A stretch of DNA of 64,000 nucleotides from Psammoneis japonica (Eukaryota). A program made the translations under genes and the position numbers. Under the pieces are notes generated by a model. That model worked only from the letters and a program-made list of their open reading frames with translations. It was not told the origin of the DNA and did not search any database. The stretch lies in the NCBI GenBank assembly GCA_008632985.1, contig QPGO01000033.1:124001-188000 (forward strand). The letters are read 5' to 3'. Numbering within the stretch: position 1 is the first letter of the stretch; each line of letters opens with the position of its first letter. Shown piece after piece: positions 10,387 to 50,588 of the stretch.

Positions 10387-10495
10387 GATACATGATCCTT
10401 TTCATATGCACAGAATCAAGACGATCCTAGGGTAGACTGGTGAAAGCAAAAATTGTTTACGGATTCATCAGGGTCTGATCAAGTCAGTAAAAACA

Positions 10496-12693: not shown

Positions 12694-13500
12694 TCACGAA
12701 CATGTTTCTGAATATTTTGCATCAACGTTAAGTGTCCTTTTTCTCGTCATTGTTGCCAGTGGGTTAGAGCTGACATTGTCGCCGTAGGATTTGCCTTGAT
12801 GTTCCCCTGGTGGATAGCGCAGTTTATCGAATTTGAACGATCCTCCTTCGTCAAGCACTTCTAGCTGCTCTTGATGCTTGATGCGATGCTGCTCACAAAC
12901 TGGAATGCGTGCCGGTCGAGCAAGCATTGTCTTCTCCACAAGTGCTTGCGTAAATTCTGCAGACTTTATTTCGTATTCGAGTGTGCGTTCCTCGATACGA
13001 TAATTGCTGCTGTGCGTGTGTGATGATCCGTCCCGCCGCAGTGTTAAAGTAACTTTACATGACACAGAAAGAATGAAAGACTGGGCAAGAGGCAAGGCCA
13101 CTTCCCATGAAGCCAACACACAAAAATGCTAGTTGATCTGTGTGAAAAGAAGTAGACTGAAACCTGAGCGAGTCGGAGGGCAAAGCGAATGCATGCCTTT
13201 ATGAAGCTTCGAAGTACAACATGAGCATTCTTAGTGCCTGTCCCCGCCATCAGAGACCATGCCATCATGACGGTCATAAGCGCAAGAAGTGAAGTGATTG
13301 TTCCAAGGCAGAGAAACAGACCTGCCCAAAATGCAACACTTTGCCAATCCTTTTCTCCCAATGCAATGCGCACATTGTCGATTGGTTCTGATGGCGAGAA
13401 CAATGCGACGAGCCGTGAACCAATCATGAGCGTACACATGGTTGTGAGGGATGCAAAGCATTGTGTAAGAAGCCTTTAGAGCTTTTGTGCATCTCACTTG
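12694..13500 (-). pseudogene. Disrupted multi-TM hypothetical host gene at the edge of the hypermutated block
   Basis: Overlapping ORFs 13044-13439 (FWAGLFLCLGTITSLLALMTV) and 12694-13119; TpA content falls progressively towards 13.5 kb. Confidence 0.45.
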
Positions 13501-13725
13501 CCCCAGCTCAAATGCTGGTGCCAAGAGTCAGACTGATCAACGTGCACTGAAAGATCCATCACTTGTTTGGCCATGGGAAACAAATGAGCACACCGATGCC
13601 GCACTTTTCCGGTGTTGTTCTCACTTTGTTGATGCATTTTTGGTTCACACCTTTCATGCAGCTTCTCATGTGGCTAAGTGTTCCAGGTTGGTGGGAGTTT
13701 GAAGCTGACATGCCAATGACATCTG

Positions 13726-14400
13726 ATGTTTGACATCGAGACGGACGAAGATGCCAGGAATGTCACGGGCTTGCTGGAAGCATTGCCCGAGACAGCTCGT
13801 GTTGTTGCAGGTGGTTTCACTTTGTTGCACTGTGCTTGTTGCAACCACTTCTTGAGCCTGGAGATGATTCAATTTTTGGTGAATCTCTTTCCACATGCAC
13901 TGCAATGTAAAAATGGAAGCAAGGCGCCCCCTTTGCTTTTGGCATTCAACAACAGCTCAATCTCCCTGGATGTTGTTCAGTTCATGGTTGAGAAATGCCC
14001 ACAGGCACTGCTGTAGAAGAAAAGGCTGGAGGTTCCGGCAAATCCATTGAAAGTGCTGAATTTTGCCATGCACTTGGTGAATCAGCACCCAAATGCACTG
14101 AGTCATGGAGACAACCTGGGGTTGACTTGCCGTTGCATTGTGTTTGTGGAGATGAATCCACTTCCCTGCAGGTCATCGCCATTTGTTGGATTGGCACCCC
14201 AGTGTGTTGAAACAGAAAAATGACCACACAGGATGCTGCCTTGTCATCCTCTTTGTGTTCAGTCCTGGAAGGACATTGAGCACCATGCAAACATCCTCTG
14301 CCACCTCCTCCATCCATCCCTTTCTAGGTTTTTCCAACTGTGCAGTCTTTGGAGCCCAAAAACAGTCCATGAGACTGACCATGGGAGCTTGCATGATGCA
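13726..14400 (+). pseudogene. Decayed ankyrin-like (LPLH-repeat) gene
   Basis: TLLHCACCNH.LSLEMIQFLVNLFPHAL, SLDVVQFMVEKCPQAL, DLPLHCVC..SLQVI; contains stops and frameshifts. Confidence 0.6.
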
Positions 14401-17400
14401 CCCCTGGTCCCAAACTTTCTGTGCCCCATCTGTCATGCATTGAATTTCAAAGGTTGATCCTTGAATCCATTGTCATCTGCAGTGTTGCAGAAGCACCCCT
14501 TCTTTGAACATGGGTGCACCGTCACATGCCACTGGCCACTGCTTGGGAGAGAGCCAAAGCCAAAAAGAAGTGAGGGCCCTTGTCGCAGCCCTGCCAAAAG
14601 CTGTTGAGCACTTGGGCCAGGGTTTCAGAGCCAAGATTGCATCAAGCGGCAAGGAAGAAAGAGGAGGCTGATCATGCAACCCCTGAAGATGCCCACTTGC
14701 ATCCCTGCACTGTCAACAACAGAGCCGGCACAAGGCTTCAACCCAGGCCCCGCTGTTCTCCTGATGCAGGTGGTGGCAAAATGATTGTGCAGTCCGTCAA
14801 CACACCACACCAATTGAGAGCAAGGGTGCACAGGAGCCATGGTGCCCACATTGATGCAATCTGCTTGTCATGCAACCTGAGGGGGTGGGCAGCCCAGGCC
14901 ACCATCACCAATGGCCACATCAGACACAATCAACAAAAGATCAATCCAACAAGAGCAGGGAAGGCACCATTGCTGAGCAGGCAACCACACAGCTGTTGCC
15001 AATGAAAGAACCCAAGACAAGCTGGTGCTGGAGCTCAATGCATGTCACCAGGAGTTGCACGTTTCAGCACCTGCTTCCAAAGAAGTTGCCTGGGTGACAA
15101 GAAACACCTCCACAGGGACAGTCAGAATGTTGAGAAAGACAAGGGGAGCTGTGTGCCCCACCCAACCTGTCCACAGCCTTGTCAACCAGTCCATTAGAGG
15201 AGAAATGCAATGGAAACCCCATGCCAGCACCAAAACCTCATCTGGGGCAAAACTGTTGTGTGAAGAAGTGCAAGCCACAGGGGATTGGTGGGTGTGTTGG
15301 GAATGCCACAGGATGGAACAAGCTTCCCAGGTGCAACAGGTCCTCCTCCAAAGAAGACTTGGGTTGCCAGAGCTGTCAGGAGATGAAGCAGGATCTGGCC
15401 CTCTCTCATGTCATTTCTTGTTCTCCAGGGGCTTCAACTGTTTTGTAACATCCTTGAGAGTTCATTGTGCAACTGTTGATCTCAACATGTTCTGAGTGGT
15501 CCCCACAAGCCTGAGCAGACTTTGCTTCCATGCTGGCACATTCTCTGCCTTCTCTGCAAGAGCCCCAACCATTCCTTGGAGCTCCATCACTGCCTCAAAG
15601 CCTGAGCTTGTTGCCCTGAGCTTGATGCACTTAAAGGAGCCACAGAGGGGGGGGGGGGGGGGGGGGGGNAACCCCAATGCTGTGCGCTGCTTGGCATCAC
15701 ATCCTGGGTTTTGAAGACTGGTGCCCACAAAACATGTGACTGTGCATGCTTGATCTGGGTTGCCTCCCACTGTGGAAGTGAACACACCCAACTGAACTTT
15801 CTCAGGGTCTTCAAAGATCCCATGAACCAACCTGGCAGTGATGGACCAGGCTTGCTTTTCCAAGAACTTGCCAAGCTTTGTGAGTGCAACATCAGCAAGG
15901 ATTTTGATCTCAGCACTTGCAGTCCTCCCATCTGAGATGGCAGTGCTTCTTGGCGCCAGCATTGTCAGAGGTCCAATGGGACTGTTCATGGGTGGGCACC
16001 TTGTCCAAATGGGATGGGTGGAGCCCAAATGCCTGTGCAGACTTGGTTGAGCCCAAGTCTGGAAGCTGGGACATTCTGTGCTGAAAGCCCGCCAAGATCC
16101 TGGCATTTTTGTCATTTGCTTCACCCAGCCAGAAAGAAAATGATGGAGGGCTGAACAAAGCTTGGCTCCCATGATGCCATCTGAGAGCAGGTTGACATCA
16201 GCAAGGCAACTGCAGGTGCAAGGGACAAGAAGTGCTGTGCCATCCGCGATGCCTTGCGCTCACCTGAGCAAGACCCCACTGCCCCCAAAACCTTGATCAA
16301 CAACTTGTCAGATTTAGCTTGAAGCTCACTTTTGTGCTGTGGTCCAGTGGTGTGAGGCAAGCATCAACTGAATGAGAGTGCAAAGGAGCTGATCCCAGTG
16401 CTGCTGCCTGCACATCAACACTAGATTCTCACACTTCAAGAGACAGCACCTTGTTGGGCAGTTGACTGTTGACTGCTCTCACAAAGCACTCCACTCTTGA
16501 GGGAGTCCATGTCTGACAAGTGAGAGGCAGCAGCACTCTGTCTTTAACCCTTGCCAGGAGGGTCTCACACACAGCTGCTTCCTTGCATTCCATCAAGGAA
16601 GCTCTGAACTCATCCTCTTGGTGGGGCAGCCCTCTCCTTGCTGTTTTTTTTTCAGGACTGGGAATTTCTGGCACCACCCCAATCTACCAGAATTTCAGCA
16701 GTGGACTCTCACTTGACTGCAACACACATTGACAGAAAACCACCATCCAGAGTTGGTTGACAGAGAAGCCCACATCCAGTGTTTTGAGGATGGCCACCAA
16801 CCACTGTTCAAAAGGTTGGAGTCCCCCACCCCCGCCCTTGTGCTTCACAGTGCACACTCACCTGCCTTCTTGACACAAAATGCAGCATGCCACATTGGCC
16901 CCTTCTGGCCAAACGATGTGACAACAAGGCAGAGGAGATGAAGGAGACACACCTTCCTCCTCCTGCCTGGCTGCAGCCCCCCCCCCCCCCCAAATGCTCC
17001 TGCTCCACCAGATCCAAAAAATGTGTCCCACACATGCAGGGTGGTCTTGGCCATGCTGGCCACATGATGACTGACACACCACTGCAAGTTCACCAATGGC
17101 TGGTTGCAAACAAGTGACCATGCCCTGTTTCACCTGCTTGATGTCTGCTGGGAGATCACCAAAGCCAGAAAGACTGCCACCAACACTTGAGCCCTGAACC
17201 CAGGGTGTTTCTGCTGTGACAACCCCCTGAAGATCCATCCTGGGAGGGTGGAGGAGAGGAAGATGGTGAGGAACCCAATGAGAGCAGCAGAGAAACCACA
17301 TTGGACCCAAGTTGATGAGCACATCATTGTTGAGACCAGAAGTGAAGCAATGAGACACAATGACAAGAGAAGCAAAAAAAGAGGTCCTTTTCCAAAAAGC

Positions 17401-17633
17401 TTCAGTGTGATCCAGTCACAGTGAACAGTGTTGTTCCTGTTCCAGCAAAGCTGAAAAAGTGAGAAGAGAAAAATTGAACCATGTTTTGACAGGTCACAGA
17501 AGACTGAAGACCCTGACGGGTCAGCTTGATTTGTGTTTGGATGTTGAGGTTGCTGCTGTGGTGATGTGAGGGGTGGGGTTGAGGCAAGGCAGTCATGCGC
17601 TCTGGAGAGCAGCATGCATTGCACCCACTCCTC

Positions 17634-17825
17634 TGTTTGAGTCTGTCCATCATTGGATGGATGCAGTGGCTGACGCGTTTTTTGGTTTGCTTTCCAGAAA
17701 CTAAGAGACTTTGGAATGATGTCTGTGACATTCTGAAGATGTCAGTGGAAGACCAAGAGATCTGCTTGAGGATCCTCTCACAATCTGAATGGATCACATT
17801 TTGTTGTTTTGTTTTGTTCTTGTCA
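17634..17825 (+). repeat. 5' LTR (internally deleted relative to the 3' LTR; 3' end approximate)
   Basis: Aligns with 24607-24865; begins TG and ends CA. Confidence 0.85.
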
Positions 17826-17842
17826 AGTCACTTTTGGCACTT

Positions 17843-17852
17843 CATCAGAGCC
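17843..17852 (+). promoter_or_regulatory. Primer-binding-site remnant (tRNA-iMet type)
   Basis: CATCAGAGCC just downstream of the 5' LTR; canonical (TGG)TATCAGAGCC with a TA->CA change. Confidence 0.55.
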
Positions 17853-17873
17853 ATCCTCCAGCTGTCTGAGACT

Positions 17874-20800
17874 GTGGCATTCACTGCAGCACAAACCACC
17901 TCTTTTTTGAGGACAACAACCAGATGGGTTTGCCCTGTGCAACACGTGAGCAGTTGGCAGTTGAAGGATTGGAACAGGTGAACAACCTCGCCGATTTCAA
18001 CAAAGATGGTCTCAACCAAGTCTCACAGAACCCCAAGCATCTGGGAGGCACTGTTCCAGATCCCAACCCTGGTGCAGCTGCTGGAGCTGTCATTTTGACA
18101 CCAGCATTTGTCACAGGTGCCAAGAGCATGATGCATCTCAAGGTCACCAGGCAAGCAGTGCAATTCTACGAGAGTGTTGGTTGTGAACTGTTGGCTGCTG
18201 ACATGCACTGGAGCCCAGTCCTCAGGAACTTTCAAGAAGCTTGGAAGGCACCGAAGGGCAGGAAGGACAAGGATGACCCCAAAGTTCCAAGGATCTCCAA
18301 GTCACTTCCTGTTGTGAAGTGGACCAAGGCTTTTTGTGACCACCTGCAGCATGCAATCGGAACTTGGGTTGTTTGACTTTCATGCGTCACTTGGGAGATG
18401 GTTGATGTTGATGCGGCAGCTCCTGCACCGGACACAAGTAAACCCCACTTGGATGAACATGGTTCACTCAAAGACAAGCTTGTGGCTTGAGCCAGTCATG
18501 CTCATCCTTCATTTTGAGAGGACAATTCTGCACGGTGGACTGTTCTTTTTGGAGGAAGCAACCTCTGGAACCTCACACACAGCTTCAATCAAGCCATTCC
18601 AGTGTGGGAAGGATGGAAGGGGTGCATGGATTGCACTGACATCACAGTGTGCTGGAGAGGACAAATGGGTGGCTGAACTCAAGAAACAGGAGGAGTTCAT
18701 CCACAATCGGAAGTGGAAAGCTCAGTCCAATTTTTCCCTTGATCGATTTGTTTCTCAGCATTGCAACAACTTCATCTCCATGCAACAGTGTGCTGAATGT
18801 GTCACCTTCCAACTGCCCAATGAATGCACAAGGGTCACACACCTGTTGGATGCAATCAAGACCTCCGATGCTCCACTGCAGGCTGCCATGGCCCTGGTTT
18901 GCAACAACATGGGACAGAATGGCAAATGAAGTGATTTTGAAGCTGCTGTGGCCCACATCTCACCATGCAATCCTGTGGCAAAGAAGCAAGCTGCAAAATG
19001 TCCACACACTGAGGTGTCTGGCATTGACTCCAGCAACATCAAGTCAGGTGTTGGAAGACTGGTGTGGAGCTTTGACACCACACCCATGCCAAGTGTTGCA
19101 AGTTAGAGGCTGAACAGAAAGCTGAACTGAAGGAGTGGCAATCAGCACGGAGGGATCTTCTGCTGCAAAGAAAAGGGATGGAAAACCTGAGTCACCTGCC
19201 AATGGTTCACAGAAGAAGATCAAGAAGATGATGTTGGAAGCTGTGGCCTCCAAGCCAGCTTTCAGGAAAAGGCTGAAATTGAGTCCAAAGATGTCAAAGC
19301 AGGTGCCCACTTGCTCTCCCTTGTTCAGGCGGCATCGTGCACACAGACTCCAGCTCCTCCTCTTCCCTGCCCCCATCCACCACCACCTGTGGCTACAACG
19401 GCTCCAGCTCAGGCCACGTCAGTTCAGTTCAAGCCACCCTTGGTTTTGTTGCAGTCAATCTTGCGGCATGCCAGGACCAAGAAATGAAACGTTGGGATGG
19501 TGCTGCATTTCAATGTCTCTCCACTTGAGGGGAGAAAATGTGCCATCTGTGTCATGGAATTGCAGTTGTTGATTCCCAATTGTTCTGTTCTTAGATTTGT
19601 TGATCACCATGCAATCTCTGATGTCACTTCAGAAACAATCAAAGAGACTCAAGACAAAAGTGGGCATGCACCAAATTGGACTCCCACGCCAACATGGTTG
19701 TTGTTGGAAGAAGCTTGCACACGTCCCAAATGACACCGGTCGCACCACTCAAGTCAGTCCCTTCAATCCTGAGTGTGAACTGATGAAGGACATCAGAGTT
19801 GTTGATGCCCTGCTGGCGTGTGGCTGCCTGTGCTCTCTGAAAACACATTTGCTGGTCTTGCACAACACTCTTCATGTTCCAGCAATGGACCACAACCTGC
19901 TTCCACCCTTTGTGCTGCACCAGGCAGGGGCAATTGTCAACAATGTTCCCAAGATGCAGACAAGGGGGAGGGAGCCTGTGGAAGATGACCATGCTCTTGC
20001 ATTCCCAGAGACAAAGACAAGGATCCCATTGTCACTCTGGGGTGTGTTTTTGCACTTTCCAACCAGATGTCCTGCGATTTAGGAGATGCAAGATGCTGAT
20101 GACGTCCTGGCTCTCACTCTGTCAGGACACTCCTGGAACCCTCACTCAGATTCCCATGCTTGCAATGAAGAGAGCATGTTGGGTTGGGCAGGAAACATGT
20201 TGGACAAACAAGACTGAATCAGGATTTTGGTCAAAGACCCACCTGATGAAGATGAGGGTCTCCAACTGTCCTCTGTGGTGTCAAGTGTTGAGTGATCATC
20301 GACTCCAAATTGCTCCTTGTTGATCACTTTGAGGCTCGTGACGACTTGAGTGGATGCACAGGTGTCATCCGGGAAGCTGACAATTCCCGTGCGGTCATGT
20401 GTGACATTTTGGCCACTCTTGACCCTGTCTCACTTGCTGAAGACTTGCAAGATCAATGTGACATTGGGGTTTTTGCAGCCTTGGCAGGATCTACAAGGAT
20501 GTTGATTTTGACATTTTTGAGGATGTTCAACTTGAAGACATTGTTGAAGATCTCATGGAGCATTTTGAATCTAGTCCTGAGATCCAAGTTGGGGGAACGA
20601 CTGCACCCAGATTGAAAGGTGCATCTCCAGAACACTTGTCCAAGATCTGGAGGATCAGCACCAAGGATGCAAAACTGACCATTGGCAACACCACCCAACT
20701 TCTTCGATGCTCTCACAATCCTGCTCTCTCAAGGAACTGTTCCACGAATGACAGAATGCTGCAGTGCCGTCAAACTGCCCAGCAGTTCTTTGTGGATGCG

Positions 20801-23800
20801 TTCTCTGCAAGCAAGAAGGCTGGCAAGTCAACCAGAGGGTGTTTCTGCATGCAACTGTTTGTCGCTGACAAAGGATTCATGCATGTGGTGCCAATGCGTG
20901 CCCGCTCTGAGATTCCACAGGCACTCAAGATGTCTGCCAAGGAAGTGGGTGCACCGGATGCGCTCATCTGTGACAGAGATTTGGCACAGAAGTCTGATGA
21001 GATTTGCCAATTTCTTTGTTCTATTGGTGCTGATCTTTGGTTGCTGGAAGAAGGCACACCATGGTCAAATTGTGCTGAACTCTACATTGGCTTGCTCTAG
21101 GAAGCAGTGCGGAAGGACATGAAAGAGTCCTCATGACCTTTGCCATTTTGGGATTGCTGCTTTGAACGATGGGCCCACATCAACAACTTGACAGCTCGAA
21201 ACCTGTTTCAACTTGAGGGGAGGAATCCACATTTCTCTGTGACAGGGGAGGAGGGTGACATCTCTGACCTTGCCCAGTTTGGATGGCATGAATGGTGTCA
21301 TTTTTGAGATCACACCAACCCTTTTCCATTTGATCATGAGGCCCCAGGACGTGTGCCAGGTCCTGCGAAAGGTGAAGGAAATTAAATGGCTCAATGGGTG
21401 CTGAAAGGGAACAGCAATGTTGTCCCACAACATCCAGTGCAACCTCTGTCCATTGCCAAGTTAAACAGCATCACAGAGAAAAGCAAGCGCAAGATTTTTG
21501 ACCAATGCATTGAATCGCACTGGGGCTCTGCTGCTTGCCAGGTGTCCTCCACCGGCAAACAATTCATTCCGCATGAAGACAAAGATGAAAAGCCAAGAGA
21601 CCTCCCTGATTTTGATGACCCAGCCAATGCCTCTGGGAATGCCATTGACCCAACACCACTGTGCGACAAGCCAGTTCACTCTGAAGTCGCCTTGCCCGAA
21701 GGTGACAAGATGCAACAAGCTGAAGTTGTTGGTCATGTTGTGGATCCTGATGGTCAGTTGGTCGGCACATGCAATGACAAGCTGATCAAGAATGCCTTGG
21801 TCTGTGAAGTCGAGTTTCCTGACAGGGAGGTGAAAGAATGCGCTGCCAATGTCACCGCGGAGAACTTGCTCTCTGAAGTTGACTCTGAAGGCCACACTCT
21901 CAACATTTTTGACAGCACACTTGATTTTGCCAAAGACCACACTGTGGTGACCAAGGACAACATGTGTGCCAAAGTTGGCAAACACAAACAACTGGGCAAG
22001 ATGACATGCGGTTGGAAATTCCTCATGTTGTGGAAGGATGGGACCGAGTCTTGGGTTTCACTCAAGGACATGAAGGAATCACATCCAGTGGAGACTGCAG
22101 AATTTGCAAAGGCCAGAGATGTTGATGATGAACCAGCTTTCCAATGGTGGATGCCATGCACTCTTCACAAGCAAGGTGTCATTGTGTTGGCAGCCAAGGC
22201 ACGTGTGAGACGTGTGACACACAAATGTGGTGTCAAACTCCCCAACACTGTGGAGGAGGCACTTGAACTTGATTGTCAGAATGGCAACAAACTGTGGGCA
22301 CTGGCAATTGAGAAGGAGATGCATGATGCGGGTGTGGCATTTGAGATCTTGGGCAATGACGCTGCAACTCCTGTCAGCTGGTCCAAGCAATCAGGTCACT
22401 TGGCATTTGATGTCAAGATGACCTTGGCCAGGAAGGCTCGATGGGTCCCAGATGGACACAAGACTTCCAAACCTGAAGGCTTGAGACGCTCGCTGGAGTT
22501 GTGTCAAGGGAAAGTGTGCAAGTCACTCTGACTTGCGCTGCTTTGAATGACATTGACATCATGGCAGCTGACATTCAGAATGCATGCTTGCAGGCTCCTT
22601 CATCCCAGAAGCACTGCGTCACATGTGGCCCAGAATTTGGACTCAAAAATGTGGGCAAACATGCTCTTGTTTGCCGTGCTCTGCATGGTGGCAAGTCAGT
22701 GGGACAAGACTTTTGGAACCACCTGCATGCTTGCATGTCTCACCTTGGGTTCAAACCTTGCAAGGCTGATCCTGATGTGTGGATGCGTGAGGCGCTCAAG
22801 GCTGATGGCACTGAGCACTGGGAGAGCATGTGTTCTTCTTCACACAGATGATGTGCTGTGCATTTCAAACAATGCTGAAGAGATTCCACAGAAGGAAATT
22901 GGCACAAGTGCTTCCCATTGAAGGAACCATCAATCAGACCACCAAGTCTGCACCTTGGCAGACACCTGCAAAAGGTGGAGCTTGAGAATGGTGCCAAGGC
23001 ATGGGCACCCAGCTCCTCGCAGCACACCCAAGCATTGGTTGAGAATGTCGAAACCCATCTGGATTCAAAGGGCGTGAAACTCCCAACCTGGGCCCCCGCT
23101 CCACTTGGCAACTCTTGTCATCCAGAGCTTGACATGAGCAGAGAACTGTCCTTGACTGATGCTGCTCATTGTCAGTCACTTGTTGGTGTGTTGCATTGGA
23201 TGGTTGAGCTGGGGCGTGTCGACATTTGTCTGGAGGTGTCCATGATGTCATCGCGTTTGGCTTTGCCATGAGAGGGACATCTTGATCAGGCACACCATGT
23301 CTTTGCACACCTCAAGAAGCACCACAACACCAAGATGGTGTTTGATCCCACCTGCCCCACCATCAATGAAGCGCTGTTTGCATGACAAGACTGGATGACT
23401 TCTGAGTTCAGTCTTGCAACCACGGAGGAGATGTCTGCCGACATGCCTCAAGCTTGAGGTCTGGGTGTGATCCTTTGTGCCTTTGTCAATGTGGGCCATG
23501 CAGGTGACTCAATTGCTTGTCAGTCTCACACTGGCTTTCTCATTTGCCTGAATTCTGTGCCTGCTTGTTGGTTGTTCAAGAGGCAGACGAGAGCATTGAG
23601 ACAAGCTCAGTTGGGTCAGAGTTCACCAGCATGAAGCAGTGCACAGAGCACATTCATTGGCTTTGCTGCAAGTTGCAAATGATGGGGATCCCAGTCAATG
23701 GGCCAGCACATGTCTTTGGTGACAGCCAGTTGGTGCTGGCGAGCACCTCCATCCCTGACTCAACGTTGAAGAAGAAATGTCACAGCCTGGCTCACCACTT

Positions 23801-23900
23801 CGTGCACGAAGGTGCGGCTCGAGACAAGTGGTGAACGGCACATGTCAACACACATTTGAACCCCAGCAATCTTCTCACCAAGGTGCTCCCATCAGGGGAG
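17874..23900 (+). pseudogene. Decayed gag-pol of the copia element
   Basis: Fragments 17924-18929 (gag), 19597-20082 (PR), 20555-21100 (IN), 21386-23271 (linker/RT), 23517-23834 (RH); many TGA stops and frameshifts. Confidence 0.9.
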
Positions 23901-24127
23901 AAGCGCAATCGGTTTGTTTGAATGACCCTGCACTGTCTTGGAGGGAAGGTGGAGCAGGCCATCTTGTTGAACCAGCCACCTGCCTGCGCGGAGGGTTTTG
24001 TTTGGAGCTCCCTGTCGACGGAGTGGGTTTTTGTCTGGAGTTCCCCACTTGATGGGTGTTTGTCAGAAATTTGCCATTGCATGATGACGACTTGTCCCTT
24101 TGCATGCAATCTAGCTTGTTGACTTGT

Positions 24128-24575
24128 GCAGCATGCATGCAGACAAAAGGTCATTTTTGTCACGCCCTTTGTGACATTTAAAGGCTGTGACACGTCGCCG
24201 TGATGCATTGGCTCTCATTGGCAGCTGCACATTGCACTCCTCCCCATGTGTCACGCGTCCATGCGGCTCTTTGCCAACGTGTGCTGACACTGCACGGTTT
24301 TGGCGGAACAGTGTGGGTACGTGCGAAGGAACACACAGAACTGCACAGAGTTTTGCGCGTTCGACAGTGATCAACGTTGCTGCAGACAACTCCCACTCAG
24401 GGTTTCGAACCCCTGGCCTCCTGCCTGATGGTTGCGATGAACCACTCCGCTGTGAATTCACAACGCAGCATGCATGCAGACAAAAGGTCATTTTTGTCAC
24501 GCCCTTTGTGACATTTAAAGGCTGCAACACGTCGCCGTGATGCATTGACTCTCATCAGCAGCTGTGCATTGCACT
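24128..24575. repeat. Two 111-bp direct repeats (24128-24238 and 24465-24575) flanking a ~225-bp core
   Basis: Near-identical copies starting GCAGCATGCATGCAGACAAAAGG; four differing sites, three of them TG<->CA. Confidence 0.92.
24391..24460 (-). ncRNA. tRNA-derived Pol III head (SINE-like or tRNA pseudogene)
   Basis: Minus strand: A box CAGCGGAGTGG (24452-24442; consensus TRGCNNAGYGG with T->C) and perfect B box GGTTCGAAACC (24411-24401) inside a CAGGG/CCCTG stem; 30-nt spacer. Confidence 0.65.
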
Positions 24576-24598
24576 TGACCAATTCTCTAGAGCAGATT

Positions 24599-24606
24599 GA
24601 GGGGAG
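24599..24606 (+). promoter_or_regulatory. Polypurine tract
   Basis: GAGGGGAG immediately before the TG of the 3' LTR. Confidence 0.8.
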
Positions 24607-24865
24607 TGTTTGAGTCTGTCCGTTGTCGGATGGACACACAGTGGCTGACGTGTTTTTTGGCTCGCTTTCATTCCAGCAGAAAACTGCTGTGTGTGCTCCA
24701 GAGAGCAGCAGCAGAGTCTGCCGTCACTTGCCAATGCTGTAAATAAGACTTTGGAATGATGTCTACGACACTCTGAAGACATTGGCAGAAGACCAAGAGA
24801 TCCACTCCAGGATCCTCTCACAATCTGAACAGATCACGCTTTGTCATTGTTTTGCTCTTTTAGCA
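24607..24865 (+). repeat. 3' LTR (3' end approximate)
   Basis: Follows the PPT; aligns with the 5' LTR. Confidence 0.85.
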
Positions 24866-25060
24866 CCTCCAAACAAAGATTCTGTGGGTCCATGCTCATT
24901 GGGCGGTCTTGCTTCAAGCAAACCGGTGAGAAAGCAAAGCGAGCAAAGACAACATCACATTTTACTCTTTTTGCTTGATCTCCTGCCGGCACCCATCGCA
25001 ACTCAATGAGCCATCTGAAACGCTGCTCGCAGACCAGTCTGCTGAAAACTGGGGCCTGCA

Positions 25061-26468
25061 ATGGGGAAGAAAAAGAAGGGAAGCGCCAAGAAGAAAACGG
25101 ACACAAGCACTCAAGACCCCGCAGTCGCACTGGACCCAAGCTCCTTGGAATTGTGCAACAAAGCGTGTGGACACATGCAAAAGACACGTCAACACTGGGA
25201 TGCGATTGAAACCCAGGTGAACAAAATTGAAAGACAAGCGCTTCATTTCATGCTTCGAAAAATCATGGCTGCAGCGAATTTTTTCGAAGAGAACACATTT
25301 GGCCAACAAATCAAAGGTGTTCATTTGTGCACATTTCATGATCTGCTGGAGGCGATTGACGTTGATGGAGAGTCGTTGTTTGACGCCTTTCGGGCACGTG
25401 CCGCATGCTTGGCTGGACTTCGCACTGTTTTAGACGCAGAACAAAAACAGGACATAAGCTGGATCAAGGAGGAGGTGAAAATGAGTCGAGAATTTGTCAA
25501 GGTGCTGGCGAGAGAGGAAGAAGTTGCTGGAGGCCTTCACGAACTGTTTGAACAAAATGGAGACACCAGCGCACAAGTTGTTGTGCTCTCAATCTTTTCC
25601 ATCGTCACTGAGACAACAATGGCTTTTGTGGAACCACAAGAATCTCGACCTGCGAACAACAAGCTGGACCGTGCCCTGCTCGAGAAAACTGCTCAGCAGC
25701 AATGTCCCGACGACTTTTGCAAAAACAAACTCGATGCCACCAGAAAGCACAATGCAGCATCCGAACAGTGGGCTCAAATTGACTGGAAAACTCCAGGCTC
25801 AGTCAACATGTGGCACACCTGCGAAGCCCACATGTGCAACCCTCATGTGCCTGTCTCCTCGCGGAACGGACCCACCCACTGTTGTCGTTGGATGTTGCGC
25901 AAGTCGCTTGTCAAGGATCTGGAACCATGGCCGAAGCACTCCGAGCAGCTCCCGACCTCCATCATAATTGGTCTTCAGACTTGGCGGCATCGCGATTGGA
26001 GGCAATGCTTGATTCCCCGTGCACCACCGAAGACTGCAGTTTCCACAGCACGATCATGCACCTTGGAGAGTGCGCCAAACAGCAGGGCAACACTGCGTTT
26101 CGAAAAGGTGACATTTCAACCGCACTTGAATGCTGTGCTCGTGCCGCTGGATTAGTCCACTGGATTGGACACCAAACAAAGCCATCTACTTGAGCAAAGC
26201 TGCCCAGTGCTTGCTCAAACTTGAACAATGCGAAGCAGCTGTCCGTGCCTGCACTTCTGCCATCCAGATAGATTCGAACAATTTCAAGTCGTGGCTACGG
26301 CGCAGCATTCAACGCGCCATGTCTACTTCCGCAGGACTTCAGCTGAGCGCTGAAGAAAAGCAAAAGAATGAAGCACGTCTCATGCAATTACGCAAGCGAA
26401 TGTCGCCGGATAGTGCCTGCGACGCCTTGGCCCGTGTCTACAATTACTTGGCAACGATGGCGAGTTAG
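25061..26468 (+). pseudogene. TPR-containing host gene, TpA-hypermutated and frameshifted
   Basis: MGKKKKGSAKKK start; 364 aa with no Tyr; TPR segments KQQGNTAFRKGDISTALECCARA and AIYLSKAAQCLLKLEQCEAAVRACTSAIQID. Confidence 0.7.
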
Positions 26469-34121: not shown

Positions 34122-37100
34122 TGCATTGCATGAGAAGCATTTTTTTTATTCATATGAAAGTAAATTTAATATGTTGTGGTGATTGAATGTTGAAGAATGA
34201 TTGGCAAAAGGATGCATCAAGTGGGATCGTCTAGTGACTTTAGGATTCTACCTGTACGTCTTTACTAAAACCTGTGTTTTAATACACCTTCAAGGACATG
34301 TTATTTTTGCAACAGGAATCACCAAACCAAAATGGTCATAATCCAAAGTACAGCAAAATCATTTTTTCGATTTTCTCAATAACCAATCTAAAGGGAAAAA
34401 ATGTTCTCTTGCTTATGGGCTTACTACCGTGCCACACCATCCTCGAGTTGGTGGTGCTGCAGCCTCCGCTGGCACAGTGTGTGTCAAGCAAGAGGACCCC
34501 ATCGTGGCCAGAGCTTGATTGTTGGGTTTGGGATGCTCCACACCACATGTCGGAGCATTTGCAACATGGAAAAAAATGGCCACTGCATGACAGCAGCTGG
34601 CAATCGGAACACCATCACCAGCAGCACAAGAAATTGGCAGCAACTGAAAAAAGTGGCCATTTGCCAGAGAAATGAGCTGTCTGGACAAACATCACTTCTT
34701 GAAAAGGCGATTGCACGTGCTTGAAATGCAAACAGGATTTTTTGCTGATGAGCAGAGGAAGAGACAGAGATGTGACTAAGGAGACATTTAAATTGTGAGA
34801 CTGCTGGTGAGTGATTTGGCTTGATGTGTGGGGCTGCAATTCTTTTGCCGACAGCCCCCACCTTGGGCCCCTGAAGGCACCCCAGCAAGAAAGTTGTCAC
34901 CCTCTCCAGCAATGCAATGAAGTGCACTGCCAAACCTGCCACCACTGGAAACCACACAATTTCCCCTGCCCTGACCCGCCCCTGTGCCACTTGCTCAGGG
35001 CCTCCAAAAAAGACTTCAAAATGGCATCACTGTGCTCATCATCAACAGCCATCAGAAGACTGCAGGAGATCAGATCAGTTCTTTTGCAGATGCCCAGCAA
35101 CAAGAAGATTGTTGAAGAGAGTCGGATTTCTCTGGGAGGCAGTCAGATGTGTTGGTGGTCAGTCCATGACACAGCAGGCACAAATGTCTTCAAAGTTCAC
35201 ACTGCAAACAACACTTGCCAGCTGGTCTGGTTGTGTCAGCCAGTCAATCACAGAGACTGATTGTTGTGGTTGCAGCCTGGACCTGCAGCATGATGAGTGC
35301 TTTGCAGCCTGGAACAACCATGAAAAAATTTTGGACTGTCAAATGGCACATCCAAGCAAACAAGAGCAGGATCCATGGTTTGTTGACAGAAGAACAGCAT
35401 TTCAAGTTGGTCTTAAAATTTCTCCTGGAAAAGCCATTCTTGAGACATGGAGACCAGCTTGAAAATGTGATGGATGAACCAATTGAGAAGATTGCAGCAA
35501 TGGTGGCATCTGAGCATCACGTGCTGTCCTGCATCCTGGTGCCAATGAAGGGTGTTGCACAGAAGTTTCACTTGATGGCAATGGCAAAGGTGGTCAAGCA
35601 ATGGGCAGCAGAGCAATTGGCAGCAAAACAATGGGATGAGGAGGGGAATGGAAAGTGGCAGTTTCAGTGGAAGTGTCAACAGCATGACCGTTCCACCTCT
35701 TCACAGATGTGTGCATGTGAAATCTGGCAGACAAAACCACTTTTTCCTGTTGTTGGAGAACAAATGACAACACCCCCACTGCAACATGTTTGCAACTGAA
35801 AACAGCAATTAAAATGTCTTCAACTCAAGTGGAAGATCAGGATCAGTGGGAGCCAAATGCCAGCTCTCATGCTTCTTCCTCATCACTTCTTTCTTGGCCA
35901 AGGGGGGGGGGGGGGTCACTGCAACAGATCCACTTTCTGACAGCTGTCTCTGCCTTTTTCAGGTCTTTGCATTTTTCAGTCCACCATGCCTTTTTCCAAA
36001 GAGAGCTTGTCTAGATTCTGATGCACTTTTTCTGCCTTTGCTTTGGTGAACATCTGTGCAACAGCTGGAGTGCAACAAGTGCCAGAGCTTTCCAATCTGG
36101 CCAGACATTTGACCCCAGTTCTGGATGTTGTTGTCAGTGTCATCCTGCTCATTGAAGCCAATTTTAAATGCCTGGGTCAAAAGACTCCTGTCACACATGA
36201 GTGGGAAAAGCACAGTTGTTGTTTTTTGAAAATCTTTCTTCCATTTGACCAAAGACCTCGGGATCATCTTCCAGGCATGCCCACTGAAAACAGAGGTCAC
36301 ATGCAGTGAGAGTTGCACATGTCCAGAATTGGGAGAATGACAATGCAGCCGCCTCTGAAATCTTGAAATCCATGGCCAGAAATGATTTAGAAGTGGGGCC
36401 TCAGTGACTTCTTTGACTTTAAGCACACTGCAATGAATTTGCCAAAACATTCCATGTGTCCAGCTGGAAGCCAGCCAACTTTGGATTGAGCTGGGATTTT
36501 CTCAACCATTTTTTGGTGGCAGATCAACAAGGCTTTGATCAAGACAAAGAGAGACATTGGTGGCTGGCAGACCCCAAATGCACAGGGCCAATGCAAGGAC
36601 AAACACCTTCCAATGATTTTCAAGGCCTGTCTCACCACCATTGCTGCAAATCACTTGGCAAGTGGGCTCCTCAATCTCTCCATGGCTTACAAGCAAGCAA
36701 TTGCACCATCAGATCCTGCTCTGGAGACAAGTTGCAGACCCAACAAGTTGCAGCTGACTGACTGGGTTGGCAACGATGTCAAAGAACTTGATGTCAGCAG
36801 TGTCTCACAGAAGAAAACCATTGGTCATTTGTGTTTGTTTGTTTTGATGATGGTGCAATGCCCACGACTAAAAAGCACACTGGGAAAATGAGGCGCTGTG
36901 GTTGGTGGTCAGAAAATTCCATTTTTGTCTCTAAAAGATCAAATGGATCAGTTTTCAGTTGAACTGTGAGCGCAGCTGTGCTCAATTTGGGCTCCAAGCC
37001 AAGAGAGCTGCCATCACATTGACAATCTTTGGATGCTGTTTGCTTGCACCATGTCATCTCCGTTTGCACCATTGGAAACAAGAGGCCAAGAGCATGCTGA

Positions 37101-37544
37101 CAATGCAACAACAACTGCATTAAATGAGCAGGGCCACAGCCACATGGACCCAGTCTTCACCCAAGGCAGACATGTCTTGTTTTGTTTTCAATGCTTTGTG
37201 GGTCTGATCAACATTGACAGCAAACACAAGAACTCCCAACAGTGACAAGGTGGTGGCATCTTTGTGTCTTGCTTGCTGAACTCTAATTTGTCCCCCCATG
37301 CACTGGGCATCTAGAGTGGGGTTCTGAAGAAAGAATGTTGCAGGTGGCAAGAACGTGTCAACTGTGCTGGACCATCTAGATTGCTGTCATTCCAAGCATT
37401 TGAAGCATTGGTCATTGGCTGACAATCACTCCTCGACTTGTCCATGTTTGTCACAGTGGCAGTCGCCAAGGTTGCACACAATTTTCATGCACCAAAAACT
37501 GCGTGGACGGTGACCTGAACTGACCTTCACACATCAACAGATGA

Positions 37545-38065
37545 CAGCAATTGGGTGATCGCCACTCTGTTCTGTCACCCAAGTGCTGTGCCACATGATG
37601 GGACTCATGGTGGCAAACCACATCTTCTGGGATTTGTGTGGACTTGATGCAAGCCCTGACCTGATGGAATGGTGCAAAGGCAACTCCAGTGGGGCACTCT
37701 TGTGTCCTGCATGAGCGGGACTCATGACACACCCAACATCATTTTAAGCTGCAGTTTGCAACAGTTGCGTGCAAACCACAGCACGAAGAACTGAGTGCTT
37801 GGCACCGTGGGATGATGGGTGATGGGGTGCAAGCATTGGATGATCTGGCCTTTGTCCAGTGGTTGGTGCTGCAGCAATTGGGTGGTTGCCGCTGTGTTCT
37901 GACACCCAAGTGATTGATGCTGCACCACACAATGGGGCTCATGGTGGCAAGCCACATCTCCTGAGATTTGTGCAGGTTTGATGCAAGCCCTGATCTGACA
38001 GAATGGTGCAAAGGAAATTCCAGTGGGGCATCCTTGGATCCCACATGCATGAGCGGGACTCATGA
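37545..38065. repeat. Two diverged ~185-195-bp direct repeats (37545-37727 and 37872-38065)
   Basis: Both run CAGCAATTGGGTG...GAATGGTGCAAAGG...TGCATGAGCGGGACTCATGA. Confidence 0.85.
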
Positions 38066-39588
38066 GATGCCCATTTGACTGTCAGGCCACCTTGAAAGTG
38101 GGGGGCAAGGACAGACCACTTCTCCGGAGCCTCGCGCACACATTTCTTGGGCCAACCAACGACCTTGGAGATGCAAGCCTCAGAAGACCCAACTGCATTC
38201 TCTGAGGCCATCCCCTCAGAGCTCATCAGTGTGGCCACCCAAGGGCTCACAGGAGCAAGGCAGCATTCTTTTGCTGAGCACTGGTGCTGGTGGCTTGTGT
38301 GGCAGCTTTGGAGATCCCTCTGCTTGCACTGTGGCAATGGTGCTGAGGGCTGAGTGCTGCCAGCAGCCATGGTGCATTCAACTGTTTTCTTCCATTGAAG
38401 AGAAAAGTTCCCACACTGTCCTTTGGATGTGAGTTTGAGATCTGTCAGTGCCAGACTTGGCATTGCATTGATGGGTTTAGTGGGCTGTGTCTTTTTGCCA
38501 CTTTGTGTCAGGAGGTTGTGCATTGCACAGCAAGTTTTCTGGTGATTTGGTGGGAGCAGGGTGTTGGAATTTGCATGGAGGAGCTGCATTGATGTGCAAG
38601 GTGCTGGTTTTGTTGATGTGTTTGACTTGGGTGTTGTCTGCTGTTTGAGGCAGAACATGAGCAGATGGTCTGAGACAGGTGTGCCATGGTCTGGGTGTGT
38701 GATGGCACACACTGGCGGTGGCCACATTTGGCTGGTCACATTTCAAGGAGAGATCATTGTTTGCAAGGTGGCCCACTTGGGGGGGGGGGGGGCATGCATG
38801 CCTTTTTTGATTCTGACATGCACCCAGCCATTTTGTGGGCAAGTTTGCATGACAGTTTCTTTGATCAATCCATGTGCAAGTGAGGGTTCAGTCAACTTTG
38901 GATTTTGGAACAGATTTGACAGCATCCTCTGTGCCTTTGATGTGGTTGCTGACACCTTGGGATGCACTGCAAATTTTCTCAGCAGAGAACCCTGCTTTTG
39001 GGTTTGGCGAGTGGTTCATCACAATTTGTGGATGCTCAAGTGCTGGGGTCAACAACAGCTCCTGCCCACGGTGAGTCAGAGACAGTGTGTTGTGTTGTTG
39101 ACTCAACTCAACACAACGATTGCTGGTTGGCACCAGTGCCCTTTACAGACTTTGGCCCCTGATGGACCCAACCGGCTGGGGTGCAGAACTCCTTGGAGAA
39201 AAGTTCCAGACCGGCATCTAAGAAACAGAAATGGAAAAAGAATGTTTTGCGATCGTGCTCAACCCGAAGTTGAGGAGCAACACCGTCAGTTGTCCAGTTC
39301 GTCGGATGACAACAGGTCCCTGGCACAGGTTGCTTCATTGTCGCCGGTGAAGCCGTCGGTTTTCCAGTCATGTCAAGCAGGTCCCCGGCACAGCTGATGA
39401 AAAAAGAGAGAGTCGCCAATCTACCACGATTGTCAGGAGTCAGAATGCTCCTGTGCTTGTGCCTCAACCTCCTGGTCCTGAGATGCACAACGACGTTTGG
39501 TTGGAGGTCTTACATTGTCGTCGTGATTGTTTGTCAGATCGAATTCCCGAATTCTGGGTTGACTGCATGCCCATCTGCGCAGCGCCGC

Positions 39589-42500
39589 TCATTCGTCCTG
39601 GAGTTGCACACCAACCCCAAGCTTGCGAGACAGACGTTCTTGGGCTGCCACGATGTTTGCCAGCCAAGAGCGTTTGAAAGAGGTTGACTTCGAGAGCAGC
39701 GAGACAACGTGACTGCAGAAATGACAAGCGAGTTCCCCTGGGAGACCTTCTTGGCCCCGCTGAAAATGGTGGCGAATCCACGAGTCTAGCTCGTCTCTGG
39801 CTTGCTCGCTGATTTGAGGGTGGGCGGCGGCGTTCCCATGTTCCCACAGCCGATGCGTTGTCCCGACAAGCTGGTGAACCCATCTTCTGACCCATTTGGA
39901 TCCCGATTTTCTAGAGCCTTGGAGCCAGAAATGCTCCTGTTGCAGCAGAGCCCACTCCTTCACTGCACAGCCCTCCAGAAGTCTGTCCCAGCCGATGACA
40001 CATTGCGACTCAACCGCCTGACGAAGGATTGGGCTTGCGCAAGGGTCGATGCGGACATTGACATTTTGCTGGCTACACCAGGCAGTGAGGTGTTCCTGAA
40101 TGGTGCTCGCTAAGCCAAACGCCGCATCGTTGCGATCCACCCAGCGGATGTGTTTGCGCAAGAGCGACCTCCACTTGTCCGTGGCCTCTGGGCAAGCAGT
40201 GACGTGCGTAGTGTCTTCATTGTCGGCGTCGCACCGGGGGCATCGCGAATGATCCTGAGCCTTCCAGCGTTTCAGCCATTTGCCTGCTCTGCACATTCCC
40301 ACCGCGTGTTTGGCCATCCACCATCGTTTGCCGATGCCAAGACTCCTGGCGACAGTCTGAATGACATCCCAATCGATCCTGTGAAAGCCCTCGTCCGTGA
40401 AGCGTCTTTTTTGTTCGATCCAGCATTTTGCCAGCCGTGTGCCGTGAACGTGGTGATGCAGTCGATCAGAAAGCTTTGTCAAGATCTTGTGTCCTCCAAC
40501 GAAGACACCCCACATTTCGTCTTTGATGTCAAACTGTCATGGCTGCCTTTCCTGGGGGTCTAGTCTGGCCTCATGTTGCCATCGAGCTTTAGCTGGGTTG
40601 TCCATCTCAATGTTCAGTCTTGCCCATCTGTCGAGTCTTCTGCATCGTAGAGTGTCTTGATGTCCTTTGACCCACCGGAATTTCCACCGCAGTGGGCTCT
40701 TGGTGATTTTAGCCTTGACAGCACTTAAAATGTCGAAGTCGTTGGACCGAGCTGTGACGGGAAGAGTGGGGTCCGACAATTTTCGTAGAGCTTGTTTGCC
40801 GTCACAGGCAATTTCAATTGCTCCTTGATGAACGTCATGATGCAGACAAATGTCTTCAACTGTGCAAACAATGCCGTGGAGACCCGCTGTCTCCGCTCGG
40901 TGGGAATTCGCATCACCAGGGTGACCTGGCACAACGTTGGCACCCGTCACTGGGTGGGTGTCTCATTTGCCTTGGACAGTGAATGCCGATGTTGCAAGAT
41001 TGTCTTTAGCCAACCCGTCACTGACAGCAATGGCTGCTCCTGATTTGATGGCGTTGGCAACATGCAATCCGTCGTCGTCGACCGAGACTTTGTTGTTTGC
41101 CCATTGTCTGGCTGGAGGTCGTTGGCGGAGCCGTTGGAGAAGATTGATTGGGGCTGGGGCGTCTTGACTGAGTCTCGTGCCGGTGGACCCCGAGCGACAC
41201 ATTCCCCATCTGTCCTTGCCTTTGCGGTGAACACGGGTGCGTTGACTGTCGTCGGGCATTGCAGCCGGTCCAGCCGGAATAAATCTGTGATGATGGTTTC
41301 TCATTTGCCTGCTGCTCAACAACCTGAATGAAGTCCATTGGTTGTTCTGACCTCTTTGACACAGTCGTTGTTCAGATGGAGAGTGGAGCCAATGCCAGCA
41401 GGAATCATTGTCTCTAGTGTCGGGAAGCCAGGCGCCCAAGGGACGGCGCAGTTGCCTTGAATGGACATTGGTGGCCTGTGCAAAGCAGTGCCTTAGAGCC
41501 TTGCGCCACATCGTCCAATCGGCAGCCTTCAGGCATTGCTGCGGGGGCCAATTGCGCTGGGACCGAAAGAAGACATCCTTCTTTCCATTCCACATGTCAC
41601 ACAGAATGTCGCATCCATCACCAGTTGAGATGTCAGCAAGTGTCACGACATTCAGGAAGACACGGCAACGATTGAGGGCCTGCAGCTTAGCTCCGACAAA
41701 GCCGTCATCTGCAAATCTTTCCATGAGAAAGGCGTCATTCTCACGTGAGAGTCTCAGCAACGGTGCATCTTCGTTGACTCTGATGTCGTGGCTCGACAAG
41801 AATTTCCAAAGATGTTTGACCCATGATTGGGTGGCCAGGCGCTGCCGATTCCAACTTCCAGCTTGTGTTTCTCCACAAGTGCTTGGAGAAGTTGACCCGT
41901 GATCATGTCAGCTTTGCCGTGTTTGACAAAGGCCTCGACATGTTTCCTGTGCATGGTGGAAGCAATCGATTCAAATCCGAGGCCCTGCAGTTGGATGGGA
42001 CCATGCACAACTGCGCGGGGAAAGGACTTGCACAAACCTGATCTCGGAAGGCCTTGCTTGAGCAGCGGTGCTTCGATGCATTTGCATTCTTTTGACGACA
42101 GGGTCAGGGCGAGAAGAGGACAGTCGAGGGCCTTGCGGACTCATTGAGTCAGAGCCAGCCACGCATCAGCCTTGGAAAGATGACCTGATCGAGCCCAATC
42201 TGCCCAACCTTCAGCATGCTTCCGGAGTTCTTCCACTGCCTTCCTGCAGTTTCCGTCAGGGGCCAGCCACACTCCTGGAGTTTTCTTGGTGATGGAGGGC
42301 GAGAGCCGTTCGATCGGATGTCTAGTTCCTTCTGCATCCTCTGCGCACATCTGTGGGTCATCCTGGTTGTCAGGATCACTGTCTTCGTGAACGCACTCCC
42401 ATCTGCCATTCACCATTTAAATTCGATCAGGTGCCACCAACATTTGTCCGGACGAGTGTCGCCTCCCGCAACTCTCATGCCGCCTGCAAAACGGTCCAGT

Positions 42501-48300: not shown

Positions 48301-48380
48301 CTCACATCAGTTTGAGAGGTTACTTTCTTGCTGGGTGAGGAGGCACCCTTGTGTTTGGTGCCGTTTTGCTTGTTGGCCAT
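45285..48380 (-). pseudogene. LINE ORF1
   Basis: 1031-aa ORF upstream of the APE; low-complexity N-terminus; probable compensating frameshifts at ~47.05 and ~47.8 kb; contains no Tyr. Confidence 0.75.
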
Positions 48381-50513: not shown

Positions 50514-50588
50514 AATTAGAGCTCGTGAAAAATAAGCAGGGTTATCGGCAGTCGCGGCAGAGAACGAGAACGACCGTGCCACCTCACC

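Follow-up and report, generated by a model that had tools for sequence, protein, structure and literature searches.

Repeat-induced point mutation (RIP) changes C to T, mostly at CpA, and raises TpA. Mutation-accumulation lines of the rhizarian alga Bigelowiella natans yielded 231 mutations in two integrated viral regions, of which 230 were A→G or T→C changes, every one of these at TpA; the mutations arose in some of the lines only, at about 1000 times the background rate (Mettrop et al., bioRxiv 10.64898/2026.01.13.699255). The text of that preprint also describes 124 clusters of TpA-poor, CpA+TpG-rich 1-kb windows in the B. natans genome and an enrichment of reverse-transcriptase and endonuclease domains among TpA-poor genes, and its authors propose an ADAT2-like DNA adenine deaminase. 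Our literature search found no TpA hypermutation in diatoms, and apart from that preprint turned up only work on fungal RIP, APOBEC and ADAR. The present analysis concerns a stretch of 64,000 nucleotides (nt) from contig QPGO01000033.1 (positions 124,001 to 188,000; hereafter the window, numbered 1-64,000) and a Ty1/copia retrotransposon within it. The element is bounded by two long terminal repeats (LTRs). It is highly probable that this element is dead, and that after its integration the chromosomal DNA was altered by two separate, strand-symmetric transition processes, both of which yield TG and CA.

The first process would be fast and regionally targeted, turning TpA into TpG or CpA until nearly all TA had been cleared from two sharply bounded transposon blocks. 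The second would be a slower decay of CpG to TpG or CpA, most simply by way of 5-methylcytosine deamination in methylated transposons. TA and CG are palindromic, and the strand that is struck therefore decides between TG and CA. A change on one strand would give TG and a change on the other CA, so that independent events in two LTRs would leave TG in one copy facing CA in the other, an arrangement that we call a swap.

A preliminary description of the window, made from the letters alone, had quoted GAAGA-TG-T-CA-G-TG-GAAG in the 5′ LTR against GAAGA-CA-T-TG-G-CA-GAAG in the 3′ LTR, GATC-TG against GATC-CA, TGAA-TG against TGAA-CA, and GTC-TGTG-ACA (5′) against GTC-TACG-ACA (3′). All of these motifs were located as quoted. 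The LTRs were aligned globally with transition-tolerant scoring, and a second scoring scheme was used as a check. The 190 aligned columns comprised 158 identities, 30 transitions and 2 transversions, with 71 gap columns besides (31 transitions and 3 transversions under the second scheme). Sixteen of the 30 transitions pair up as eight TG↔CA swaps. When 30 transitions were placed at random on the 5′ LTR in 100,000 trials, the mean was 0.93 swaps and the maximum 6, and eight or more never occurred. Duplicates of similar divergence in TA-normal DNA of the window served as controls. Positions 33049-34121 compared with 50579-51691 gave 1 swap in 1064 nt (117 transitions, 85 transversions), 4266-4816 compared with 9362-9903 gave 1 in 538 nt, and 7734-8283 compared with 9349-9891 gave 2 in 537 nt. 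Swap density is 4.2 per 100 nt in the LTR pair versus 0.1-0.4 in the controls, in all three of which the transition:transversion ratio is near 1. In the LTR core, identity over 104 nt is 99.0% when the sequences are collapsed to purines and pyrimidines, versus 81% in four letters.

Each swap takes two transitions, and its simplest source is a palindromic TA or CG struck on opposite strands in the two copies. Since sister LTRs differ at the swap sites, these changes postdate integration. The earlier proposal of a TA or CG ancestor hit after insertion, in chromosomal DNA, is thus supported; both dinucleotides decay at this locus, and both do so strand-symmetrically. Single-step sites are also visible in the LTR pair. 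CG in the 3′ LTR faces TG or CA in the 5′ LTR five times, the reverse occurs once, and one CG is present in both. Two sites involve TA: TG(5′)/TA(3′) within TGTG/TACG, and TA(5′)/CA(3′) in a poorly aligned stretch, which is doubtful. At the LTR terminus TTGTCA faces TTAGCA, and another family copy has ...TTAACA.

The timing would have to be argued differently if the LTRs were not sisters, the element being a recombinant of two diverged family members and the differences inter-copy divergence. The candidate target-site duplication is a 4-nt CCTC, an indel of about 65 nt separates the LTRs, and possible partners are plentiful in this abundant family, to which 1703 contigs of run X1 align at ≥80% likeness. 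Transversions nevertheless number only 2-3 in 190 nt, whereas they make up about 29% of variant places (378 of 1298) among family members at 80-90% likeness. Even in non-sister LTRs the swaps would be chromosomal TA or CG mutations, made at two loci, and the dating argument alone would change. We give the recombinant account little probability. Both LTRs, with their unique flanks, were recovered in contigs of run X1, with one differing letter each.

The direction of change was read from the coding region, with 52 intact copia homologues as outgroup. The element is identical to them in 532 of 711 conserved columns. Of 35 conserved Tyr columns (TAY), 17 have become Cys (TGY) and 14 His (CAY), while one remains Tyr and three hold other residues. 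Among 49 conserved Arg columns, 29 have decayed (10 His, 9 Gln, 5 TGA stops, 3 Cys, 2 Trp); the remainder comprise 11 retained CGN codons, 8 AGR codons and 1 Gly, so that 29 of 40 conserved CGN codons are lost. At least five in-frame TGA stops of the polyprotein are former CGA Arg codons. One base change accounts for 154 of the 179 differing columns, and two or more for the other 25. The single-step changes consist of 47 at TA (29 TA>TG, 18 TA>CA), 62 at CG (42 CG>CA, 20 CG>TG), 25 other transitions, 15 transversions and 5 ambiguous cases. About three quarters of the classifiable changes thus fall at TA or CG, and the losses amount to 97% of TA and 72% of CG. The spectrum is not purely AT→GC, with 62 changes of CG to TG or CA beside the 47 at TA, and we read these CG changes as a second, separate process. 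Native avoidance of TA by the element was considered and rejected, as the homologues have Tyr where the element has Cys or His. The Arg codons displayed no 5′-to-3′ gradient of CG decay along the element, and such a gradient was therefore rejected as the explanation of the more decayed 5′ LTR.

At the Tyr codons the 17 changes of TA to TG and 14 of TA to CA represent both strands, and editing of the sense RNA alone is therefore ruled out. Editing before integration might more generally have been ADAR-like, on RNA, or APOBEC-like, on cDNA. According to the preprint text, ADAR favours U before the edited A (bioRxiv 10.64898/2026.01.13.699255), and in vertebrates LTR retrotransposons are known to undergo editing by APOBEC (PMC4866542). 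Changes made before integration would mostly have been copied into both LTRs, yet the LTRs differ at these sites; one-strand editing gives one outcome, whereas Tyr went to both Cys and His; and the TA-depleted block around the element extends past both LTRs into the flanks and includes a later, nested insert. We consider pre-integration editing exceedingly improbable.

The extent of TA loss was delimited from a 1-kb profile of observed/expected dinucleotide ratios together with lists of TA and CG positions, which gave two TA-depleted blocks (Table 1). Across windows 14001-26000 and 35001-50000 the TA ratio is 0.00-0.17, with TG and CA, listed separately, mostly at 1.3-2.3. Block 1 by itself has 0-10 TA per kb between 14 and 26 kb (ratio 0.00-0.16; TG and CA 1.3-2.0). 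In the genic flanks outside the blocks the TA ratio is 0.42-0.84 and the CG ratio about 1.0. The edges are sharp, with 110 TAs in 28,292 nt of blocks versus 1413 in 35,302 nt outside. For B. natans the preprint defines a cluster as three or more 1-kb windows in succession with high CpA+TpG and Rho(TpA)≤0.43, and both blocks fit this definition with CpA and TpG taken separately. Their identified contents are the copia element, a long interspersed nuclear element (LINE) and a high-copy insert, and the host genes outside the blocks are spared. CG follows a course of its own. Its ratio in block 1 is 0.04-0.33 at 14-24 kb and 0.63-0.76 at 24-26 kb; in the LINE part of block 2 (39-48 kb) it is 0.67-0.85, with TA at about 0.1, and in the older parts of that block (35-39 and 49-50 kb) CG is lost too.

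The LINE and the nested insert separate the two processes. At 20 conserved Tyr columns the LINE has 6 Cys, 5 His, 5 Phe, 2 Tyr and 2 other residues, and at 61 conserved Arg columns 26 CGN codons are kept and 8 have decayed to TGN or CAN, corresponding to losses of about 85% of TA and about 24% of CG. The nested insert is flanked by TTGAC at 24119-24123 and 24575-24579 and sits shortly 5′ of the polypurine tract. Other family copies bypass it, their read contigs joining 24083-24123 to 24594-24597, and as it is missing from these copies it must have arrived after the copia element. Contig depth summed over the insert is 66,000-106,000, versus 60-750 in the rest of the element. Between its terminal repeats there are 10 transitions and no transversions, 3 swaps being included among the transitions, with CG kept in both repeats at four sites and CG facing TG at one. 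At all six well-supported variant rows in the insert, the TG or CA of this copy corresponds to TA elsewhere in the family, and TA stands at each of the six positions in a 226-nt contig of run X2. The read comparison covered the best 40 of 1298 variant places, 2 of which lie in the LTRs. Among these best 40, the element has TG or CA against TA elsewhere in 9 and against CG elsewhere in 5, and CG against TG or CA elsewhere in 4; the other 22 involve no such dinucleotides. The LINE and the nested insert thus have a nearly pure TA spectrum, and the high TA loss beside modest CG loss in the LINE, together with an insert whose CGs are intact, demonstrates that the TA and CG processes are uncoupled.

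Sixty-seven of the 110 TAs left in the blocks lie in YTAR (CTAG, TTAA, CTAA/TTAG), versus 228 of 1413 outside, and only 4 lie in R-TA-Y, versus 431 outside. Retention in the blocks relative to outside is 1.6% for TAT, 5.4% for TAC, 17.5% for TAA and 18.2% for TAG. At sites other than TA there are 19 polarised A>G or T>C changes, and in 15 of these the A is followed on its 3′ side by a pyrimidine. These observations point to T-A-pyrimidine as the preferred target of the TA process, as a preference and not a rule. The Tyr-to-His share is 4 of 13 where the base before the codon is a pyrimidine and 10 of 18 where it is a purine, which is a trend only. Since 4 of the 13 Tyr changes after a pyrimidine still gave His, a strict R-TA-Y rule was rejected as a means of classifying swaps.

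How many of the eight swaps descend from TA can be estimated from the visible sites. Independent decay at the LTR CG sites (one intact in both copies, 5 + 1 decayed in one) predicts about 5 doubly decayed sites and about 2.5 CG-derived swaps. In the copia interior the ratio of TA to CG changes is 47:62, with TA nearer saturation. On these figures the swaps would be a mixture, with some 2-3 derived from CG and 5-6 from TA and a wide error on both. The extreme case is that CpG decay acted alone, every swap descending from a methylated CG and the TA differences being background noise. CG decay is certainly strong here, as the Arg codons and the six single-step CG sites of the LTR pair attest, and six of the eight swaps lie outside R-TA-Y. 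Diatom transposons are, moreover, CG-methylated via DNMT5a, and diatoms also have a RID-related DNMT4 of unknown function (PMC9998398). With such methylation the CG half of the signal is nothing unusual, and the present locus would presumably be methylated likewise. For a CG-only origin, however, the 190 nt of the ancestral LTR would have to have held 15 CpGs or more, or about 23 with the hidden same-direction hits that are expected, an observed/expected ratio of 1.7-2.6, and no part of the window exceeds 1.25; for an origin from TA alone the ratio would be 0.69-1.25. It would also leave unexplained the conversion of 31 of 35 Tyr codons to Cys or His, the near absence of TA over 13 kb, the swaps in an insert with intact CG, and the six rows of TA versus TG or CA. 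An origin of all eight swaps from CG only appears unlikely from these compositions, and we regard decay of CpG as the sole process at the locus as very improbable.

Several points weigh against the two-process reading. Sisterhood of the two LTRs depends on the 4-nt CCTC match. Run X1 is possibly from the same sample as the assembly and hence not independent of it. The ancestral composition of the transposons was represented by TA-normal window DNA, which is only a proxy, and some TAs in the blocks may be newly made rather than spared. Only two of the eight swaps are in R-TA-Y, the most depleted context, and a strict context rule would therefore give more swaps to CG; the visible LTR sites (1 CG/CG, 5 + 1) also allow a larger CG share. 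The split of the eight swaps between TA and CG is an estimate, two of the best 40 read variants lying in the LTRs. The LINE comparison is noisy: its homologues reach only 35-71% identity, and 38 of the single-step changes are transversions.

Decay of both kinds distorts the apparent age of the element. Transversions amount to 2-3 per 190 LTR nt (1.1-1.6%), whereas the raw LTR divergence is 17-18%. Taking the transition:transversion ratio of about 1.0-1.4 found in TA-normal duplicates, background divergence is about 2.5-3.8%, and a conventional LTR age would consequently be some 5-7 fold too old, in keeping with the preliminary description's expectation that LTR dating would be inflated.

The features of the locus are collected in Table 1. 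The two LTRs are, by their sequence, those of a degenerate, dead Ty1/copia element. The CCTC is a weak candidate for a target-site duplication; the 5-nt flanks, TCCTC and CCTCC, differ solely by transitions. Located 3′ of the 5′ LTR is a primer-site-like TGGCA...ATCAGAGCC, and the candidate stretch TGGCACTTCATCAGAGCC presumably resembles the initiator-tRNA-Met primer site of copia elements. ARAGORN called no tRNA gene in the window. Homologue P0003 maps collinearly, from amino acid (aa) 61 to 1474, to positions 19717-23954 (tblastn). The homologues are proteins of about 1450 aa with Pfam RVT_2. In three full-length homologues a weak integrase (rve) match (E 0.023-0.16, under cut-off) lies at about aa 414-534, upstream of RVT_2 at aa 955-1200. 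The reverse transcriptase open reading frame (ORF) has 61-74% identity to the 120 matches listed (best E 1.8e-49; PF07727 in 118 of the 120), and 5028 protein representatives match it at E≤0.001. A tblastn search with the 52 homologues found one copia element in the window, 17634..24865.

Table 1. Features of the window, in window coordinates
Feature	Positions	Strand	Remarks
5′ LTR	17634..17825	+	More decayed copy: 1 TA, 2 CG, 27 TG, 12 CA; TG start, CA end
3′ LTR	24607..24865	+	Less decayed copy: 4 TA, 7 CG; about 65 additional bases in mid-LTR; TG start, CA end
Candidate target-site duplication CCTC	17630..17633 (second copy 24866-24869)		4 nt, all pyrimidine
Candidate primer-binding-site-like stretch TGGCACTTCATCAGAGCC	17835..17852	+	Starts 9 nt past the 5′ LTR
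Polypurine tract GAGGGGAG	24599..24606	+	Abuts the 3′ LTR on its 5′ side
Degenerate copia polyprotein	19618..23963	+	Three frames, two frame changes; tblastn with 52 full-length homologues
Reverse transcriptase core ORF, RVT_2 type	22477..22851	+	Pfam RVT_2 E=0.006, under the curated cut-off
TA-depleted block 1	13280..26150		About 13 kb; copia element and flanks
TA-depleted block 2	34430..50050		LINE part and other parts
LINE-type retrotransposon	39490..45279	-	Homologues with RVT_1 and Exo_endo_phos
Nested high-copy insert	24124..24574		About 451 nt; 114-nt terminal direct repeats 24126-24239 and 24463-24576

The roughly 1.8 kb between the 5′ LTR and the first polyprotein homology (17826-19617) has no protein match and is covered by other family copies; it may be a leader of unusual length or an additional ORF that went unrecognised. 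An Rfam scan of 13-27 kb returned nothing meaningful. Exact 19-mers of the LTRs hit 2 metagenome, 16 viral and 13 genome contig loci, all of them chance matches of 19-36 nt with dissimilar flanks, and a search of viral contigs for related loci, with P0003 and with a 30-protein alignment, found no relatives. The nested insert could be a short interspersed nuclear element (SINE) or a miniature terminal-repeat retroelement. Its minus strand has a tRNA-like GGTTCGAAACC box; ARAGORN and Rfam called nothing on it. Directly upstream of the LINE homology and on the same (minus) strand, 45285-48446 is an open frame of 1053 aa with no Tyr and no Pfam match. It may be an unrecognised first ORF or another element, held open because TA loss makes no stops.

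The two flanks of the copia element within block 1 are asymmetric. The right flank (24866-26150, with an ORF of 369 aa at 25046-26155 that has no Pfam match) has almost no TA and near-normal CG, and in the left flank (13280-17633) TA and CG are both lost. The balance of products also varies, with CA at 2.0-2.3 versus TG at 1.4-1.7 at 38-39 and 48-50 kb, and TG exceeding CA at 14-22 kb. Such shifts, which include the 27 TG and 12 CA of the 5′ LTR, suggest that one or both processes are locally biased towards one strand, through replication or transcription. The TA-free DNA at 13000-26000 has no TAA or TAG, leaving TGA as sole stop, and 53 stop-to-stop ORFs of at least 100 aa overlap 15-28 kb. 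DNA of this kind therefore opens long spurious ORFs in every one of its six frames, and many false gene calls are to be expected from it. Of 18 ORFs searched against Pfam, drawn from the leader, the flanking duplicates and the flanks of the blocks, only one gave a match, a sub-threshold chance hit, and no element was recognised at 13.3-17.6, 24.9-26.2 and 34.4-39.5 kb. Inside block 1, a G run (15635-15669) and a C run (16977-17001) form inverted arms around an N at 15669, and this may be an assembly gap or problem region.

Repeats of about 150-590 nt at 2300-10400, in both orientations and 67-78% identical (4266-4816, 7734-8283, 9349-9903 and, inverted, 6276-6815), are TA-normal; not every repeat of the window is therefore TA-depleted. 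Block 2 is flanked by a direct 1.1-kb duplication (33049-34121 and 50579-51691), 78% identical and TA-normal, each copy of which has an ORF of 260-277 aa without a Pfam match. Long open genes in the window encode a CorA transporter, a Na/Ca exchanger, a Kelch protein and a DUF3493 protein of photosystem II assembly. The closest named relatives of the CorA ORF, at 41-62% identity, come from Synedropsis, Helicotheca, Ditylum, Attheya, Amphora and Cylindrotheca, all diatoms, and its top match overall is 76% identical. The host thus looks, from these protein matches, like a diatom or a close relative, a photosynthetic eukaryote, and is not Bigelowiella.

Copia fragments from other assemblies carry the same signature. 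Four such fragments were found among 283 retroelement homologues. P0030 has 7 Cys, 2 His and 1 Phe at its conserved Tyr columns and keeps 8 of 11 conserved Arg. In P0042 the Tyr columns hold 4 Cys, 4 His, 4 Tyr and 1 Phe, and 10 of 14 Arg are kept, the other four being Lys and none decayed. P0052 has 6 His among 9 conserved Tyr columns, and P0124 has 4 Cys and 1 His among 6. Three control fragments keep Tyr at 11 of 11, 10 of 11 and 12 of 12 columns. The four fragments may point to a wide occurrence of the TA process in marine stramenopiles. T-A-pyrimidine is also the context in which adenine deaminases of the TadA/ADAT2 type act on the tRNA loop, and the underlying chemistry may be adenine deamination in DNA or a route through modified T. 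We see an even chance that diatoms, and thus at least two branches of the stramenopile-alveolate-rhizarian (SAR) group, have an active DNA hypermutation directed against mobile DNA that is specific for TpA, prefers T-A-pyrimidine, is independent of methylation and outpaces CpG decay. By the same reading, and with the balance just as level, retrotransposons would lose all TA, and with it all Tyr codons and TAA/TAG stops, through a defence that resembles RIP, has the opposite chemistry and is legible in LTR pairs.

If true, this would extend a process known from one 2026 preprint on a rhizarian alga to diatoms, which are major and genetically tractable phytoplankton, and the question of the enzyme would become testable. 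The process is seen here on retrotransposons, carried to saturation, beside CpG decay yet separable from it. In such genomes LTR dating, transposon-age landscapes and repeat detection are badly biased, comparison after purine/pyrimidine collapse recovers the repeats, and TA-free blocks pollute gene catalogues with false ORFs.

Among known systems, fungal-type RIP was rejected because its dinucleotide signature is the opposite. The likeness lies in host-made transitions on both strands of bounded repeat regions and in inflated LTR divergence; unlike RIP, the process here erases TpA and raises CpA and TpG to 1.5-2.3. Hyperediting by APOBEC3 or ADAR likewise produces deaminase-type, clustered transitions in retroelements, but acts before integration and on one strand, whereas the changes here are post-integration and strand-symmetric. 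To our knowledge ADARs are confined to animals. In direction and location the CG half of the signal would fit methylation-driven CpG decay, going from CG to TG or CA on both strands in transposon DNA while genic CpG stays at about 1.0. TA cannot be reached by that route, and CpG decay is the slower here (24% versus about 85% in the LINE, 72% versus 97% in copia). The TA half matches the TpA hypermutation of B. natans, as the same kind of process at saturation in diatom-like retrotransposons. In both, only TpA is struck, TpG or CpA results according to strand, and the changes are chromosomal and stay within bounded stretches of foreign origin. Where B. natans is a rhizarian, the present host is a diatom-like stramenopile, and the targets are an LTR element, a LINE and a short high-copy retroelement instead of giant-virus and virophage insertions. 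The TA ratio of 0.00-0.16 is near saturation, versus a Rho of 0.45 in the nucleocytoplasmic large DNA virus (NCLDV) region of B. natans. CpG decay is superimposed here, and CpG, LTR, retrotransposon and diatom are words absent from the text of the preprint; a 3′-pyrimidine preference is seen here, and a wider context seems not to be reported in that text, which likewise lacks trinucleotide, context and flanking. B. natans shows the mutations arising de novo, whereas the present locus preserves their fossil record.

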